A stretch of DNA of 64,000 bases from Escherichia phage NJ01: the sequence record NC_018835.1. One strand, given 5' to 3'. The notes beneath the pieces are model-generated. The model searched no databases. It had not been told where the DNA came from and saw only the letters and a program-made list of their open reading frames with translations. Made by a program: the position numbers and the translations under genes. Each line of letters begins with the position of its first letter. Position 1 is the first letter of the stretch. Shown here piece by piece: positions 4,371-42,785 of this stretch.

Positions 4371-4736
4371 CTATGGATTTACACATTGACCATTACCGGA
4401 CTCAATTTCATTCATGGACTCATCAAAGAGCGTCAACGATGAGCGCATCAAGTGATTGACCGTGATTTGTTTACCAGTGATTTCATTTACCAGTAAAATA
4501 GTTTTACTATCTGATTGCACATGATCAAAATCATTTACATGCAAAATAATAACTTTAGGTGACTTTTTACCGGTTTCATAGTTTTCTATAAGGTAGGTAC
4601 ATTGCAAGCCGTCAACCGTAGCAGGGGAAAACGTTGCAGCCTTAACGCTACCCATAGCCGATAACAGCACACCTAACAGAAGAATGACCAGAAAAAAGCC
4701 TACAACCGTTTTAACGACGAATCTAATAAACCACAT
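4371..4736 (-). CDS. membrane-anchored or secreted protein (121 aa)
   Basis: N-terminal hydrophobic segment VVGFFLVILLLGVLLSAMG. Confidence 0.5.
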   Translation of the reverse strand: MWFIRFVVKTVVGFFLVILLLGVLLSAMGSVKAATFSPATVDGLQCTYLIENYETGKKSPKVIILHVNDFDHVQSDSKTILLVNEITGKQITVNHLMRSSLTLFDESMNEIESGNGQCVNP

Positions 4737-5219: not shown

Positions 5220-5711
5220 TTACTTACTGGCCTTGATGCAGTTGGCTAGATTGACATGAACGGTATAAACAGCGTTATCCGCATTATTGTAAACCGTGGT
5301 GGCAATCATCGACTGATTAACCGGGCCATAACTGACCAGATTCGTGACAGCTTTCGCATGGCTGTAACGTTGTACAGTGCCATACGTCACCATATCCGCA
5401 TCGTTATCAGTACGCTTGAGAACTAGATCACTGTTAGGCTGATTGTCTAGTGTTTTGGTACTAACGACCAGACCATCACGGGAAACGTTACTAAATTTAA
5501 CCTTTAAAACGACCTGATTGGTGTCACTATCAGCACCATTGCAAATCATCCAACCTTTATTGATGGAACTAACGAAGACACTAGCCGCATCAGTTGCAGG
5601 AGCAGGACTAGCAACAGCCTTATCAGGAAAGGAAGTTACCAGCGCACTAACACCGATCGCGGCGACTAGTGCATAACTTGCCAGATTAATCATCTGCATT
5701 GGTTTAATCAT
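5220..5711 (-). CDS. secreted protein with signal peptide (163 aa)
   Basis: N-terminal signal-like MINLASYALVAAIGVSALV, two Cys; fimbrial/Ig-like flavour, unassigned. Confidence 0.5.
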   Translation of the reverse strand: MIKPMQMINLASYALVAAIGVSALVTSFPDKAVASPAPATDAASVFVSSINKGWMICNGADSDTNQVVLKVKFSNVSRDGLVVSTKTLDNQPNSDLVLKRTDNDADMVTYGTVQRYSHAKAVTNLVSYGPVNQSMIATTVYNNADNAVYTVHVNLANCIKASK

Positions 5712-6688
5712 TTGTGAAGCCTCTTTGATATGTATCAGATAAGGATATAATAGGACACGCTTTCTTACATTGCAACCATCTTTCTAACTTTCTTTCTTTC
5801 TACTAAAAGTAGCGCCATTAAACTTACTAGTCCTATCTTTCGGGCTTAACTTGCTATCAGCGAACGACTCGACTACTTCACAAACGATCAGAACAAGTAA
5901 AGGAAACACCACAACCATGACCATCATTATTAAGATTATCATTTCTATTACTCCAATCACTCAATCAATAGGCTTCAATTTACTACTACTTAACAAGGAA
6001 GACAAGCGACCACGGGTAAACTGTTTCTACTATATAGGACGGGGCATACAACAACCGCATAACAGACCACGGGGAAACATAGCAAGATAATGCGGTAATA
6101 ATATACCACTTAAATAATTGTATAACTCAAACATCAAAAACCGTTCGTACTACGTACTCACGCACGCTGAAAAAGAAAGGAATAAACATCAATAAAAACA
6201 ATCATTCTTAAAAGAATTATTAAAAGAAATATAATCATCCACTTAATTAATACATACATCATTATTGCACTCATAACAATCACTATTGAAACTATTTACA
6301 TTCAAACTATGGGGAGCTGCGACTGTTACATGACGGTACGACGCTTTCGCTGTCGGTATTATATCGCCTTAAACTATTGGTACAGTGAAGACTAGCCTTT
6401 CTCCTACTCTTTAAAGGGGAACTAAATAAACGGGTAGGTAATGAATAGGATGGTATACACGGGGAAAGAATAACGGGGAGTAGGCACGGGGAAAGGTTGG
6501 AACGTTGATAGGGATGTAAAGGCATTGCCAATAACCATTTTTTATTTGAGGACTCCCCCTTTTTAGGAAACACGCTGCGAGCGCCTAGCCCCACTCGGTC
6601 AAATCAGAATTTTAAACAGATATATACATCTTTATTTTTTATAAATCTGTATTTTAAACTCTTATATATAAGCTTAAGAGAGGACTTA

Positions 6689-6850
6689 ATGAATCTAATT
6701 AAAGTATTTAGACGGATGAAGTGTAAGCACAATTACTATCCTCTTCGTAAAGCTTACGGGGATGAAAGAATACATGGTCTCTACCTATCAACATGGGGGT
6801 GTAAGGAATGTGGTAAGTTGAGATTCAGTACATGGGTGGATAGGCCTTAA
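6689..6850 (+). CDS. small zinc-ribbon-like protein (53 aa), below ORF-track size cutoff
   Basis: ATG at 6689 preceded by AGAGAGGA; translation MNLIKVFRRMKCKHNYYPLRKAYGDERIHGLYLSTWGCKECGKLRFSTWVDRP. Confidence 0.35.
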   Translation: MNLIKVFRRMKCKHNYYPLRKAYGDERIHGLYLSTWGCKECGKLRFSTWVDRP

Positions 6851-6854
6851 CGTG

Positions 6855-6950
6855 ACATGGCCTTTATGAGAGTGCCCTTTACTTCAGAGTACACGGGTTG
6901 TTGGTATGAGGGTGCCTTTACGGGTTGGTCTTATGATGTGCCCTTTATAC
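6855..6950. repeat. three to four direct repeats of TATGAG(A/G)GTGCC(C)TTTA(C/T)-like unit
   Basis: Copies at 6865-6882, 6905-6921, 6932-6948 plus a partial copy near 6856. Confidence 0.5.
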
Positions 6951-7069
6951 TTTTATTCAGAGGATAAGAATATGAAGTTTTTAAAAGAACTACACTCCTT
7001 GATTTATAAGGACATAGTGTACTCAGTATCCCGCAATGCATGGTTCTACCAAAAAGGTGGCAACGGTGA

Positions 7070-7360
7070 ATGGGTAGATTAAATCTTACTCAGAGGAGAA
7101 GAATTATGAATTTAGTATTAGACTTTTTATCAGAGTTGGTGCCTCGGTTCAGAACGGAGACATACGCTTTCGTAGTCAACAGTGACTCTGAAGATGGGAT
7201 GGAAGCTACGTGCTTAGGGCGTCTTGTTGACTTGGATGATGAAACAGATTTCGATATTACAATTGATGTGAGTAGCTTAGGTTGGCTCTTCTTCAGAGCA
7301 TTCCGCACTTACAAAGTAGAAACGTATAAAGATTATAGCAAGGGAGATAAAGATGAGTGA
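7070..7360 (+). CDS. hypothetical protein (96 aa)
   Basis: ORF track; first gene of rightward block. Confidence 0.4.
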   Translation: MGRLNLTQRRRIMNLVLDFLSELVPRFRTETYAFVVNSDSEDGMEATCLGRLVDLDDETDFDITIDVSSLGWLFFRAFRTYKVETYKDYSKGDKDE

Positions 7361-7982
7361 TTTAATCGCACGTAACATGGAAGGTGTTTATGGAGGTAGT
7401 TTCCCTGCTGGATCTCCTTTCCACATTAAAGCAATGGACATGGTTGATTACAATTCACAGCTGTGTCGCTCTGGTTGTAGCTTACAACATTTAGAAACTA
7501 TGGGAAATATCTCAGGCTTAGCTGTACAAGATTTATATAGTGGAAGTATTCTTAAACCAAATATTACGGAGAACAAAAACATGTTAGATTTGATTCATAC
7601 TACTCGCCCTAATTCTAAAACTAAATCAGCACCATCTACTCTGGAAGTAGTTGAATACGAATCTACTAAACATGATCATCTCCCTGACTATGCTCGTGCA
7701 ATGATTGAGATGATTGAAGAAGCTGAATATGAAATGCTCCATGATTACATTACCTCCAAAGATGAATGGCATCGTGATGTTCGAATCGAAGAAGATGGTA
7801 CAGAAACAATTACGTGGATTCACAAGAGTGAGTTAGTAGACGACGCACTGCGAGACTACGAAAAATTTTTGGTCGACGGCTCTATTCTTTTAGAGGAAGA
7901 GAAGGGTGTAGAACTTCCGTGGGAGGGTGAGACAATTGCTTTAGGTAAGATGTTTAACCTGTCCGTTGGTGATTGTAAGTAA
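7353..7982 (+). CDS. hypothetical protein (209 aa)
   Basis: ORF track; followed by terminator hairpin. Confidence 0.5.
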   Translation: MSDLIARNMEGVYGGSFPAGSPFHIKAMDMVDYNSQLCRSGCSLQHLETMGNISGLAVQDLYSGSILKPNITENKNMLDLIHTTRPNSKTKSAPSTLEVVEYESTKHDHLPDYARAMIEMIEEAEYEMLHDYITSKDEWHRDVRIEEDGTETITWIHKSELVDDALRDYEKFLVDGSILLEEEKGVELPWEGETIALGKMFNLSVGDCK

Positions 7983-8038: not shown

Positions 8039-8512
8039 ATGTTTGGAGAAAACGGAGAACTCACACCTGCACAGGTAGCTGAGATTACAGGAAGATTACC
8101 CGGAGTAACGGAAGAACTTGAAGGCCGTGGTATGAACCCAAGCAATGGGAAGTTTCAAAAGGGAAATAAATTCGGACGACCCAGAGGTAGTAGAGGTAAA
8201 CTGACACAATTAATGTTGGACCGTGTTGCTGCAAGTCATTTGTCTCCTGATGAAGTGTTAATTCAAATTTACGAAGATCCTAATATTCCACCTGATCTTA
8301 GATTCAAGGCTGCATCAAAAGTTGCAGATCTGGTATATCCTAAGGCGGCCTCTGTTGAAGTTAAGATTGAGGAAGAGAATGTAATCAACGAAGAATCATT
8401 GAATGCACAAATCAAGGACTTCTTGACTGGAGCACTTGGTATCGATGTTATGCCTCCAGAAGAAGACAACTCTGAGGACGCTGAAAAGGGGGAGGAAGCG
8501 GACGAGAGTTAA
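8039..8512 (+). CDS. putative terminase small subunit
   Basis: Position immediately upstream of large terminase; acidic C-terminus; no direct motif. Confidence 0.4.
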   Translation: MFGENGELTPAQVAEITGRLPGVTEELEGRGMNPSNGKFQKGNKFGRPRGSRGKLTQLMLDRVAASHLSPDEVLIQIYEDPNIPPDLRFKAASKVADLVYPKAASVEVKIEEENVINEESLNAQIKDFLTGALGIDVMPPEEDNSEDAEKGEEADES

Positions 8513-8630: not shown

Positions 8631-10172
8631 ATGTCATTAGATAAACAAATTTATGAAGCTCTAACTGGTAACAACCTTAGTGTGGATGAAAAGAAAGCAC
8701 TATTGAATATGTTGAAAGAGCGTGACCAATGGAGGAAGTATAATAGGATTTTGTCTTTCAAGGCGTATGACTTCCAAAAGAAATTTTATGCAGCAGGATT
8801 GAAGCATCGCTTTAGATTCTTGTGTGCAGCGAACCGTGTTGGTAAATCTTACAGCGAGGCATACGAGTTTGCTTGTCATGTCACAGGTCGATACCCAACT
8901 TGGTGGACAGGATATAAATTTAAAAGACCTATCTTAGCATGGGCAGTTGGTATTACAGGGGATTCCACAAGGAAAGTATTGCAAAAGGAATTGTTTGGTA
9001 CACCTATCGGAAAGGATACAAATTTATTAGGGACAGGTGTCATTCCTCGTGATGCTATCGTCATTGATACGATAGAACGAGATGGTAACAAACTTCAAAT
9101 CGTACAAATCAAACATCAAAATGAGAGAGGAGAGTTTGACGGTTTAAGTACATTAGAATTCCGTTCAACCCAACAGGGTGAACACACATTGATGGGTGCA
9201 ACAGTTGACTACATTTGGTTAGACGAAGAAGATCCATACGAGTCTATGGCTATATTCGCACAGTGCGTCACACGTACACTCACAACTAAAGGTCTAGTTA
9301 CAATTACAGCTACACCAGAGAACGGTTTAACTGAACTGGTAGATAAATTTATGAAAGGCGAAGGGGATGAGAGCACAGGTTCTCTCTATTTCCAGAACGC
9401 TTCTTGGTGGGATGCTCATGCAGACCTAGGTGGGCATATCACTGACCAAGATATAAAAGATATGACTGAAGGTATTCCAGCGTGGCAATTAGAGATGCGT
9501 TCAAAAGGTATGCCATTGTTAGGAAGTGGTTTGATATATGATGTATCGGATGACACAATTAAATGTGAACCATTCGAAATTCCTGATACGTGGAAACGTG
9601 TCTGTGCAATTGATATTGGTATTGATCACCCAACTGCTGCTGTTTGGACAGCTTACGACGCAAACACGGATACTATCTATGTTTACGACTCATATAAAGA
9701 AGGTGGCTTTACTCCAGTGTATCATGCTCCAGCTATTAATGGTCGTGGTCAGTGGATTCCTGTCATCCTACCGCATGATGCGGACAATACTGAGAAAGGT
9801 AGTGGTTCATCTGTTGCTCAATTCTATAAGAATGCAGGAGTTAACGTACAGAGTGAGACCTTCTACAACAAAATTGGAATGGATGGTAAAAAGAACTTCT
9901 TTGTAGAACCGGGAATCACAGATATCCGAGAAAGAATGATGAGTGGACGCTTTAAAGTCTTTAACACAGCCGCTAACGCTAAGCTATTCGAAGAGAAAGC
10001 TAGATATCACCGTAAGGTTGGTAAGATTATTAAAGAACATGATGACTTAATGGATGCAATGCGCTATTCAGCGTGTTCTGTTACACATCGTGGTCGCTCT
10101 AAGCATGATGTTAGCTACGGAAGTGCTTCTTTGTATGAGGCAAACGTAAGCAGATGGAATCAGAGCTACTAA
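8631..10172 (+). CDS. terminase large subunit
   Basis: Walker A-like CAANRVGKS, acidic WLDEED motif, size and position upstream of portal. Confidence 0.75.
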   Translation: MSLDKQIYEALTGNNLSVDEKKALLNMLKERDQWRKYNRILSFKAYDFQKKFYAAGLKHRFRFLCAANRVGKSYSEAYEFACHVTGRYPTWWTGYKFKRPILAWAVGITGDSTRKVLQKELFGTPIGKDTNLLGTGVIPRDAIVIDTIERDGNKLQIVQIKHQNERGEFDGLSTLEFRSTQQGEHTLMGATVDYIWLDEEDPYESMAIFAQCVTRTLTTKGLVTITATPENGLTELVDKFMKGEGDESTGSLYFQNASWWDAHADLGGHITDQDIKDMTEGIPAWQLEMRSKGMPLLGSGLIYDVSDDTIKCEPFEIPDTWKRVCAIDIGIDHPTAAVWTAYDANTDTIYVYDSYKEGGFTPVYHAPAINGRGQWIPVILPHDADNTEKGSGSSVAQFYKNAGVNVQSETFYNKIGMDGKKNFFVEPGITDIRERMMSGRFKVFNTAANAKLFEEKARYHRKVGKIIKEHDDLMDAMRYSACSVTHRGRSKHDVSYGSASLYEANVSRWNQSY

Positions 10173-41735: not shown

Positions 41736-41794
41736 ATTTTAATTTCCTTATTTAATTTGAAAGATTGTTGCTCTCTTTGAGCGGTTATGTATAA

Positions 41795-41803
41795 TATACA
41801 TTA
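41795..41803 (-). promoter_or_regulatory. TAATGTATA promoter-like element (minus strand)
   Basis: + strand TATACATTA; 59 nt upstream of SSB-like start; overlaps a TATAAT hexamer. Confidence 0.4.
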
Positions 41804-41866
41804 CGCTTATACCGATAAGAGTGCTATATAATATAAGTATCTTTGGTAGTAGATATAACACATTAG

Positions 41867-41875
41867 TAATGTATA
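41867..41875 (+). promoter_or_regulatory. TAATGTATA element on + strand, divergent from 41795-41803
   Basis: Exact TAATGTATA; no + strand ORF downstream. Confidence 0.3.
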
Positions 41876-41971
41876 TATTGTATAGCTGATAAAGTTATTG
41901 CAGGCTTGTATATTGGGCAATTCACAGAATCCCTTGCAAGTACCGAAGGGCAGGAGCCACCTGCGAGATAA

Positions 41972-42037
41972 AAATAGAGAATTAAGGAATCCTTGATTTA
42001 GGTTGTAGGGACTCCTAGGGACTTTGATTCTCTATTT
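41972..42037. repeat. 11-bp perfect inverted repeat AAATAGAGAAT / ATTCTCTATTT with 44-nt spacer
   Basis: Arms 41972-41982 and 42027-42037; spacer has secondary near-palindrome GGAATCC. Confidence 0.55.
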
Positions 42038-42151
42038 AAAAGAATATTAATTACTTACTACCTAAATAATTAACTAACTTACTTAAACCAAATTCAAGAA
42101 TAATAGATAAAAAGATTATTCCTAAGAAAGCTAAAAAGTAAAGTATATAAG

Positions 42152-42316
42152 TTACCATTCAAGTAAACCTTTAAAGTTAGATTGTTCTACTATTCGCTGA
42201 TAACGAAGATTAGAATCAGCTTGTTTCTTTAACATCTCATTATATTGGTCTCTGATAGAGTCTTTATAAACTACAGGTTCTTTAAATAATGAGATCTTGT
42301 TCTTTTCTTCTTTCAT
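42152..42316 (-). CDS. hypothetical small protein (start uncertain)
   Basis: Track ORF 42152..42400 overlaps phosphoesterase; internal Met used. Confidence 0.3.
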   Translation of the reverse strand: MKEEKNKISLFKEPVVYKDSIRDQYNEMLKKQADSNLRYQRIVEQSNFKGLLEW

Positions 42317-42785
42317 CGAAAACCTTCCTAATCTCTTGCAGAGAAACAGCTTTATAGTTAATTTGCTCCATTGATGTACAGAAATATCTCCAATCATCAA
42401 TTACATGATTATGTGTATGAGCATAAATATTAAACTTCCCTCTCATTTCATCAGTGTGAATAGGAATGTGAGTTATCCAAAACTCTTTATACTTATAATC
42501 ACCAGAGATTCTACGAAAGACTTTCATCATATCAGGGAGAAGTTCTAACCTATCATGGTTTCCTAAGACCAGATGCTTCTCTCCTTTCACTTCAGCGATA
42601 ATATCAAGGGCATACTTTTCAAATACCCAATCACCAGTAAAGAAGATTTTATCACGTTTGGTTACGTGGTCAAAAGCAGCCAGAATTGCTTTGTCATGTT
42701 CTTCGATGTTTTTAAATTGCTTACGAAAACTACAGATGTTGCGATGGCCTAAGTGACCATCTCCTGCAAAATAAACTTCAGCCAT
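42282..42785 (-). CDS. metallophosphoesterase (calcineurin-like phosphatase)
   Basis: GDGHLG, TGDWV, LGNHD, HTHNH motifs. Confidence 0.65.
   Translation of the reverse strand: MAEVYFAGDGHLGHRNICSFRKQFKNIEEHDKAILAAFDHVTKRDKIFFTGDWVFEKYALDIIAEVKGEKHLVLGNHDRLELLPDMMKVFRRISGDYKYKEFWITHIPIHTDEMRGKFNIYAHTHNHVIDDWRYFCTSMEQINYKAVSLQEIRKVFDERRKEQDLII

Follow-up and report, generated by a model that had tools for sequence, protein, structure and literature searches.

A probable genome-end junction with one-strand box arrays in Escherichia phage NJ01

The 64,000-nucleotide record of Escherichia phage NJ01 (NC_018835.1; hereafter the window, at its full length) contains a segment, at about 5750-6650, in which leftward genes give way to rightward genes. 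Here the physical right and left ends of a linear Kuravirus genome very probably meet, with the direct terminal repeat (DTR) present as one collapsed copy. Positions 6394-6586 are homologous, over their full length and with matching boundaries, to the mapped 193-bp DTR of phiEco32-like phages, and short ACGGG(G/T) boxes, all on one strand, are arrayed inside this repeat and on both sides of it. Taken as a whole, the region is probably best explained as a genome-end junction in which the boxes act as end-recognition or packaging sites. A sequence-only reading of the segment had proposed a replication origin, a packaging site or a genome terminus. The terminus is the one of these that the comparisons support directly; the role as a packaging site is inferred from it, since terminase cuts at the concatemer junction in DTR phages.

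The direct terminal repeat and its boundaries

A 1-kb query taken around the region matched 95 records, all of them from phiEco32-group phages of Escherichia or Shigella, and the closest in DNA was 172-1 (87.8%), followed by MN05 and PE006. The phiEco32 record is classed in Gordonclarkvirinae, Kuravirus. In the window, leftward open reading frames (ORFs) reach 5711 and rightward ORFs begin at 6689, and the large terminase (513 amino acids, 8631-10172), which has Terminase_6N and Terminase_6C domains, is equal in length to the product of phiEco32 gene 7, with a constant offset of about 6391-6393 bp between the two genomes. By these comparisons, which were made with annotated phage records (a protein-anchored search of IMG/VR gave just two loci), the 64-kb window is a circularly permuted Kuravirus (phiEco32-like) genome. 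The repeat and its boundaries are placed as follows.

6394-6586, plus strand: single collapsed 193-bp direct terminal repeat, by homology to the DTR of phiEco32, SU10, YF01 and Paul
6392-6397, plus strand: left DTR boundary, CT|AGCC, at the end of a variable spacer
6585-6590, plus strand: right DTR boundary, CT|AGCC, the same hexamer as at the left boundary
6519-6566, no strand assigned: most conserved core of the DTR, AAGGCATTGCCAATAACC-T6-A..TGAGGACTCCCCCTTTTT, from the alignment of relatives

The first 193 nucleotides of the phiEco32 record are the same as its last 193. Position 1 of phiEco32 aligns at window position 6394 and its repeat occupies 6394-6586, with 90.3% identity over 193/193 positions; the corresponding values are 97.9% for PE006, 90.2% for YF01 and 88.7% for Paul, and across phiEco32, SU10, Paul and YF01 the repeats are homologous to that of the window over all 193 bp, at 88.7-90.3% identity. 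With 6394-6586 as the query, 91 records match, 64 of them over at least 80% of its length. The first position of the query falls on position 1 of the record in WFI101126, phiEco32, SU10, YF01, Paul and IMEP8, and all of these except Paul are matched at two places, which are the two ends. The Paul record, matched at one place, states that the right-end copy of the repeat is not duplicated. The last position of the YF01 record aligns at window position 6586, and both YF01 and Paul carry an annotated direct terminal repeat. The genomic setting is also that of Kuravirus, with the last leftward early gene, the repeat, and then rightward genes toward the terminase. Nothing essential separates the window from the phiEco32-type DTR, which has the same boundaries, the same position upstream of the terminase and the same core at about 126-172 of the repeat.

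The ends to which the window is aligned here come from several kinds of evidence. For phiEco32, later papers name restriction profiling, primer walking and subcloning; the repeat ends of Paul come from PhageTerm and those of YF01 from full-length nanopore reads, and similar repeats of 192-193 bp have been found by similarity in 30 phages. Assemblers commonly leave one DTR copy mid-contig in permuted assemblies. Because 6394-6586 aligns with the mapped DTR, right-end DNA would run up to 6393 and left-end DNA from 6587, and on this alignment the right-end non-coding DNA is 5943-6393 and the left-end leader is 6587-6688. The virion DNA, with its first base at 6394 and its last at 6586, should accordingly exceed the assembly in length by 193 bp.

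The hexamer shared by the two boundaries is itself uncommon at this distance. Of 63,801 positions in the window only 19 have a hexamer equal to that found 193 bp downstream, which gives a chance of about 3e-4 for the DTR boundaries, and relatives show the variants CTAGGC, CTAGGT, CTGGCC and TATAGCC. The repeat starts with AGCCTTTC. Its core (6519-6566), which may also be written AAGGCATTGCC...TGAGGACTCCCCCTTTTT, corresponds to what the YF01 paper calls a 'highly conserved region ~130-170' of the repeat; the last 17 nucleotides of the core are invariant across three genera, and ATGAGGACTCCCCCTTT within it is likewise without change across them. In the Suseptimavirus-type group (EK010, TH43 and Bas86) the repeat would be about 249 bp long if the boundaries CT|AGCC and CT|AGGT apply, and would run from -210 to +38 relative to GAGGACTCCCCC; for SU7 a repeat of 53 bp has been reported, with caution.

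Arrays of ACGGG(G/T) boxes around the junction

The recurring motif picked out by the sequence-only reading is present as described. CACGGGGAAA has exactly three copies in the window, at 6068, 6458 and 6485, all on the plus strand, and the related motifs GACGGGGCAT and ACGGGGAG lie where they had been placed, at 6038 and 6473. When both strands are counted, there are five copies of ACGGGGA where 2.43 would be expected for the window as a whole, and all five are on the plus strand, at 6069-6762. For the ACGGG core, 10/31 plus-strand copies fall within 6012-6920, where the minus strand has none; the Poisson probability of this clustering is 5e-11 to 1e-12, or 3.5e-9 when corrected for 70 windows. 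The boxes form three clusters.

6008-6078, plus strand: box cluster A, in right-end unique DNA, with ACGGGT at 6012 and ACGGGG at 6039 and 6069 (27 and 30 bp apart)
6430-6496, plus strand: box cluster B, inside the DTR, with ACGGGT at 6430 and ACGGGG at 6459, 6473 and 6486 (29, 14 and 13 bp apart)
6851-6972, plus strand: box cluster C, in the first left-end intergenic region, with ACGGGT at 6893 and 6920, interleaved with GCC(C)TTTA boxes

One more box stands at 6756, inside the first rightward gene. Clusters A, B and C surround the boundaries 6393/6394 and 6586/6587, so that they are repeated sub-sites flanking putative cleavage points. Boxes of the form GCC(C)TT(T/A)A lie at about 6862, 6876, 6914 and 6940, and relatives have up to about seven copies.

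The three-cluster, one-strand layout is common to 18 Kuravirus relatives, and no minus-strand ACGGG occurs in the scanned flanks of the window and these 18 phages. Cluster A stands at about -350/-320/-290 from the DTR start in 17/17 Kuravirus relatives in which the right-end flank was examined, with 2-4 boxes (two only in Bas93/94) set 20-31 bp apart, mostly 27-30. The number and spacing of its boxes are kept even though the window type and the phiEco32 type cannot be aligned with each other in the DNA surrounding the first two. Cluster B is found at DTR +36/+65/+79/+92 in 16/18 of the relatives, including Paul and YF01, while in Bas93/94 the last two boxes are at +81/+93, and the two boxes of cluster C are either 26-28 or about 45 bp apart in the Kuravirus set.

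Comparison beyond the genus is more telling. EP335 (Nieuwekanaalvirus, about 67% identical) keeps its ACGGG boxes, with four upstream and five in the repeat (clusters A and B examined). The match of TH43, Bas86 and EK010 (the last a Suseptimavirus) to the DNA of the window is limited to the right end of the repeat and the leader, and their boxes read A(C/T)GGGT in every cluster examined, namely B and C in all three phages and A in TH43 and Bas86. Their cluster C has ATGGGT, the same change as in their DTR boxes, with one ACGGGT left in EK010. Box spacing in this group is about 28-30 bp upstream and 29 and 28 bp in the repeat, where TH43 and Bas86 have a fourth box 15 bp further on. Since the spacing of cluster A is kept in non-alignable DNA, EP335 keeps its boxes, and the boxes of TH43, Bas86 and EK010 shift together, the arrays appear to be under selection, and we consider it likely that the boxes are functional protein sites. 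A single co-evolving phage protein that reads all of the clusters would be expected, because the boxes change in step across clusters that lie apart.

Base composition and the question of a replication origin

The plus strand had been described as strikingly G-poor, especially at 6100-6300, and this is so: these positions hold A94 C38 G14 T55, or 14 G in 201 bases. No other 200 bp of the 64 kb are as low in G as 6101-6300 (7%; mean 20.9%, standard deviation 4.1), which is also the second most AT-rich 200-bp stretch in the window, and 5761-6310 is the lowest in G of any 550 bp (11.3%). Two of the three most AT-rich 100-bp stretches in the 64 kb, 6181-6280 and 6611-6710, flank the 193-bp repeat. 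The long A/C-rich character noted earlier stands in part: A+C reaches a high 61% over 5750-6300, but the maximum of the window is elsewhere (64.5% near 4611, within genes). On a fine scale GC skew is -0.62 at 6200-6299 and becomes positive from about 6300. The G-poor plus strand of 5784-5942 is due to a minus-strand gene for a 52-residue protein that lies there (see below). The extreme G-poverty as a whole would reflect this gene together with the A/T-rich, strand-asymmetric spacers between conserved blocks, and the skew turn would mark the divergence point of leftward and rightward transcription.

These features bear on the possibility that the segment is a replication origin, in which the ACGGG boxes would be iteron-like initiator sites, the A/T-rich 6100-6300 stretch an unwinding element, and the DTR merely adjacent. 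As at iteron origins, repeats in the same orientation adjoin an A/T-rich stretch, here the second richest in the window at 200 bp; AT-rich peaks flank the DTR, the non-coding blocks described below are strongly conserved and carry a CCACTTAA(A/T)TAAT pair that covaries with genus, and GC skew turns in the region. The skew turn at about 6300, however, falls where leftward genes give way to rightward ones and for that reason is no origin sign by itself, so that it carries no independent weight. The spacing of the boxes, at 13-15 and 27-30 bp in all genera, is not helically phased as in iterons of 11 or 22 bp. No initiator gene was recognised beside the region, where the neighbouring proteins match only families of unknown function in PHROG and Pfam. 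Whereas iterons would mark a single origin, the boxes here are spread inside the DTR and beyond it, on the other genome end as well, which a junction signal fits better; and the parallel with T7 drawn below concerns the ends of T7 and not its primary origin. An origin is thus unlikely, in our judgement, to be what the segment represents.

A model for end processing and its parallels

The junction as joined in the permuted assembly would also be the junction as it occurs in replicative concatemers, with right-end DNA, one DTR and the left-end leader in succession. In the model that we propose, the one-strand A(C/T)GGG(G/T) boxes would be bound by a DNA-binding protein of the phage itself, which in this way would mark the junction in the concatemer and for which the terminase small subunit would be the most probable candidate. 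With this protein in place, terminase would be able to nick at both CT|AGCC boundaries; the repeat would then be duplicated by strand-displacement synthesis and packaging would start, as in the T7 model. [quoted passage not shown] That the box-binding protein is a terminase or a packaging factor is put forward tentatively. The gene preceding the large terminase has been reported as PaP3-small-terminase-like, an assignment that was not reproduced in the present analysis, and in models of PaP3-type small-terminase rings the protein reads repeated sub-sites and may synapse several DNA segments.

T7 was run as a control and offers the closest likeness in layout. Its DTR is also short (160 bp), with one-strand boxes inside it and in both flanks: CCTAAAG has three copies in the DTR, at least eight after the left repeat, and two, with variants, before the right repeat, all on one strand. 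As is supposed for the window, the T7 concatemer has a single repeat copy and the second is made at packaging. There is no sequence similarity, CCTAAAG standing against ACGGG(G/T), and the relation is one of functional analogy and not of membership. T7 further differs in having its own RNA polymerase, with the promoters phiOL and phiOR near its ends, whereas Kuravirus relies on host polymerase with a phage sigma factor.

Terminase sites made of repeated sub-sites include the R sites of lambda cosB, the hexamers of P1 pac and the boxes of SPP1 pac. In these, and in PaP3-type sites, short repeats flank the cleavage points, as in the window, whose terminase genes lie 1.4-2 kb downstream of the junction. 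The lambda, P1, SPP1 and PaP3-type systems make cohesive ends or headful cuts, in contrast to the exact direct terminal repeats of the window type.

Several points weigh against the boxes as end-recognition sites, or qualify the junction itself. Within Kuravirus the left half of the DTR is conserved throughout, and the boxes are no more so than the spacers; because of this uniform conservation, the case for the boxes comes from the comparison across genera and from cluster A. The box spacing of 13-15 and 27-30 bp fits no known terminase footprint. For the product of the gene at 8039-8512, the putative small terminase, a phmmer search of the PDB gave nothing relevant, and a single-sequence AlphaFold model had a pLDDT (predicted local distance difference test) of 59 and, in Foldseek, no match at E <= 0.001, with chance globins only. 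To our knowledge, the role of the CCTAAAG boxes of T7 is not firmly established either. Lastly, the physical ends of NJ01 DNA are placed purely through homology with the mapped relatives.

Stated in its most specific form, the proposal would be that the packaging and end-processing signal of phiEco32-like phages is made up of three elements, namely the A(C/T)GGG(G/T) boxes, the GCC(C)TTTA boxes interleaved with them and the CCACTTAA(A/T)TAAT pair, which a phage protein would read in a genus-specific code, with cutting at CT|AG(C/G)(C/T) on both boundaries. This combined version is conceivable but rather doubtful. The code in question may be ACGGGG in Kuravirus and Nieuwekanaalvirus and ATGGGT in the Suseptimavirus-type group.

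Conserved flanks and transcription control

The non-coding DNA on either side of the repeat is divided into conserved and variable parts. For the right-end blocks, identities are mean pairwise values from an alignment of 17 phages.

6047-6119: conserved block a, identity 0.87; holds box A3 of cluster A, an inverted repeat (6043-6060/6090-6107) and the first CCACTTAAATAAT (6106-6118)
6166-6190: conserved block b, mean identity 0.88, between variable A/T-rich spacers
6238-6316: conserved block c, identity 0.91 (minimum 0.84); holds the second CCACTTAATTAAT (6239-6251) and ends in AAACTATGGGG
6317-6393: variable spacer up to the left DTR boundary, mean identity 0.49, with many indels
6587-6688, plus strand: left-end leader before the first rightward gene
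6601-6626 and 6643-6668, plus strand: two copies of a promoter-like block, CACTCGGTCAAATCAGAATTTTAAAC..TATATA, recognised by conservation

The spacers between and around blocks a-c have a mean pairwise identity of 0.43-0.67. The inverted repeat at 6043-6107 around box A3 was considered as a structural element and set aside: it folds, but it is absent in EP335 and TH43. The motif CCACTTAA(A/T)TAAT has exactly two copies in the window, at 6106-6118 and 6239-6251, 133 bp apart, one in block a and one in block c. Both copies shift together by genus, to CCAATCNAAT in EP335 and to CCAGTCNAAT in TH43/Bas86, and the pair suggests a second phage-specific recognition element.

In the leader, the promoter-like block AAATC(A/T)G(A/T)ATTTTAAAC..TATATA is a duplication with a spacing of 42 bp in the window and in 172-1, MN05, EC.W8-1 and O18-011, and is single in phiEco32-type phages. 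The authors of the SU10 study noted a potential sigma-70 promoter in the stretch homologous to this block, and the block (6601-6668) is missing from the hits of our sigma-70 consensus scan.

Such elements raise the alternative that the region serves to control transcription, the conserved blocks being early or middle promoters, a terminator or an insulator, and the boxes operators of a phage regulator. Early genes begin at this end, a promoter-like TTGCAA-17-TATTAT site lies at 5775-5747, and the sigma-70 promoter proposed for SU10 is directly after the DTR. Within the DTR, TAATGAATA at 6439-6447 on the plus strand differs at a single position from the promoter consensus of gp36, the phage sigma factor, with TAATGTATT in six relatives, and GGGGAGT...ACTCCCC followed by a T-run resembles a terminator. 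Scanning the window for sigma-70 promoters, however, gave 4 sites against 4.0 expected, and gp36 motifs at up to one mismatch numbered 22 against 20 expected, which is the chance rate. In phiEco32 and SU10, the promoters that have been mapped or predicted are elsewhere. In the terminator-like element the GGGGAGT arm is absent in the EK010/TH43/Bas86 group while ACTCCCCCTTTTT does not vary, and RNAalifold found no covariation. We accordingly regard transcription control as an improbable explanation of the region.

Three individual candidates were rejected in the course of this comparison. The only plus-strand site of the sigma-70 scan, at 6208-6235, falls in a 12-bp duplication specific to the window. 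The gp36-like DTR hit at 6439 was not retained as evidence on its own, such near-matches being found at the chance rate, and the GGGGAGT/ACTCCCC element was dropped as a terminator or small RNA, RNAalifold on 21 DTRs from three genera giving -1.5 kcal/mol and 0 compensatory pairs. In EP335, TH43 and Bas86, TATAATGTA(T/A)G occurs on the plus strand just downstream of cluster A. The gp36-like near-matches, a motif at chance rate, could represent outward or junction-crossing transcription, comparable to phiOR of T7.

Genes and open reading frames beside the junction

The description of 5750-6650 as non-coding fails at 5784-5942, where there is a minus-strand gene.

5784-5942, minus strand: gene for a 52-amino-acid protein, MIILIMMVMVVVFPLLVLIVCEVVESFADSKLSPKDRTSKFNGATFSRKKES, from conservation of the ORF and PHROG 7482
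5747-5775, minus strand: putative sigma-70-like promoter, TTGCAA-17 nt-TATTAT, from a consensus scan, just upstream of the last leftward gene (5220-5711)
6307-6594, minus strand: spurious ORF of 95 amino acids with a GTG start, from family searches and comparison with relatives

The 52-residue protein has an N-terminal hydrophobic helix and a charged tail, and GGAG stands 9 nucleotides ahead of its ATG. It matches PHROG 7482 (E 1.8e-17), and eight relatives share the ORF with conservative changes only: 172-1, MN05, PE006, PGN6866, pEC-N1203, O18-011 and the more distant Bas93 and Bas94; in MN05, O18-011, VTCCBPA_211 and Bas93/94 it is annotated as a coding sequence. By its sequence features, the product is a conserved membrane protein. 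Phages of the phiEco32 type are without this gene and carry the 290-residue gp128 instead, so that in comparison with phiEco32 the right-end flank of the window is of the '172-1 type', with genes for a 163-residue and a 52-residue protein, and not of the gp128 type. The 163-residue product of 5220-5711 (minus strand) matches PHROG 21410 as well as residues 130-290 of the 290-residue gp128-type family, PHROG 36409. There are thus two forms of the right-end gene, long and short, and the 52-residue gene at 5784-5942 goes with the short one.

The TTGCAA-17-TATTAT site is conserved in 172-1, MN05, PE006, PGN6866, pEC-N1203 and O18-011, and in SU10 an early promoter was predicted upstream of the last gene, at a position comparable to that of the 5775-5747 site. 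A promoter function for this site is inferred from its conservation and position.

The ORF at 6307-6594 had been suspected of being spurious, and we agree. It has no PHROG or Pfam match, its ends vary in relatives, and 1-nt indels are present in Bas90 and ShigP1. From a start in left-end unique DNA it extends through the entire repeat to a stop in right-end unique DNA; it is contiguous only across the joined ends, because its start and its stop lie in opposite end flanks. The C/T-rich composition of the repeat on the minus strand explains why the frame of 6307-6594 stays open. As for the remaining small ORFs of 5960-6393, their frames differ from phage to phage.

That a gene product is made across 5960-6600, whether a structured small RNA or a protein read from 6307-6594 or from one of the small minus-strand frames, is accordingly highly improbable, even though a minus-strand frame is open over most of the DTR in many relatives. 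The ORFs of 5960-6600 have no PHROG or Pfam hits, and block b lies in differing frames between phages, to be set beside the varying ORF ends and the 1-nt indels. Scans of the whole window with Rfam and for transfer and transfer-messenger RNAs found none, and single-strand folding of the DTR (both strands) and of the minus strand of 5960-6393 gave z values of +1.2, +1.9 and -0.3, no better than shuffled sequences.

Implications and further observations

For the phiEco32-like group, to which the window adds one member, the repeat has been described before, as has its location, and nothing here overturns current understanding. The box arrays, their in-step change between genera, the paired CCACTTAA(A/T)TAAT and the shared boundary hexamer are unmentioned in the later papers on the phiEco32 group that were consulted, and the comparative pattern of the boxes is apparently an undescribed detail of an otherwise ordinary feature. 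The present assembly is permuted and one repeat copy short; in a corrected genome, position 6394 would come first and the repeat (6394-6586) would appear again at the right end. Junction-spanning ORF calls, 6307-6594 among them, should be removed. Correct ends matter for the rebooting or engineering of Kuraviruses, which are being isolated for use in therapy. The boxes, whose number, strand and spacing persist from genus to genus, and the shared hexamer are mutable candidates for a packaging or end-recognition signal that is as yet undefined, and the function of box arrays at genome ends could be studied in Kuravirus as well as in T7.

Two observations concern other parts of the window. The 209-residue protein encoded at 7353-7982 is labelled 'ABC transporter' in many records and in PHROG 12176 but has no Pfam match, and the label looks like a propagated misannotation. 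The gp36 promoter consensus TAATGTATA has three exact and two one-mismatch copies at 41785-41884 and 42021-42570, on both strands. This cluster adjoins the other extreme AT-rich, G-poor stretch of the window (GC 23.5% at 42031-42230; G 12%), and the area at 41785-42570 is probably a middle-promoter region.

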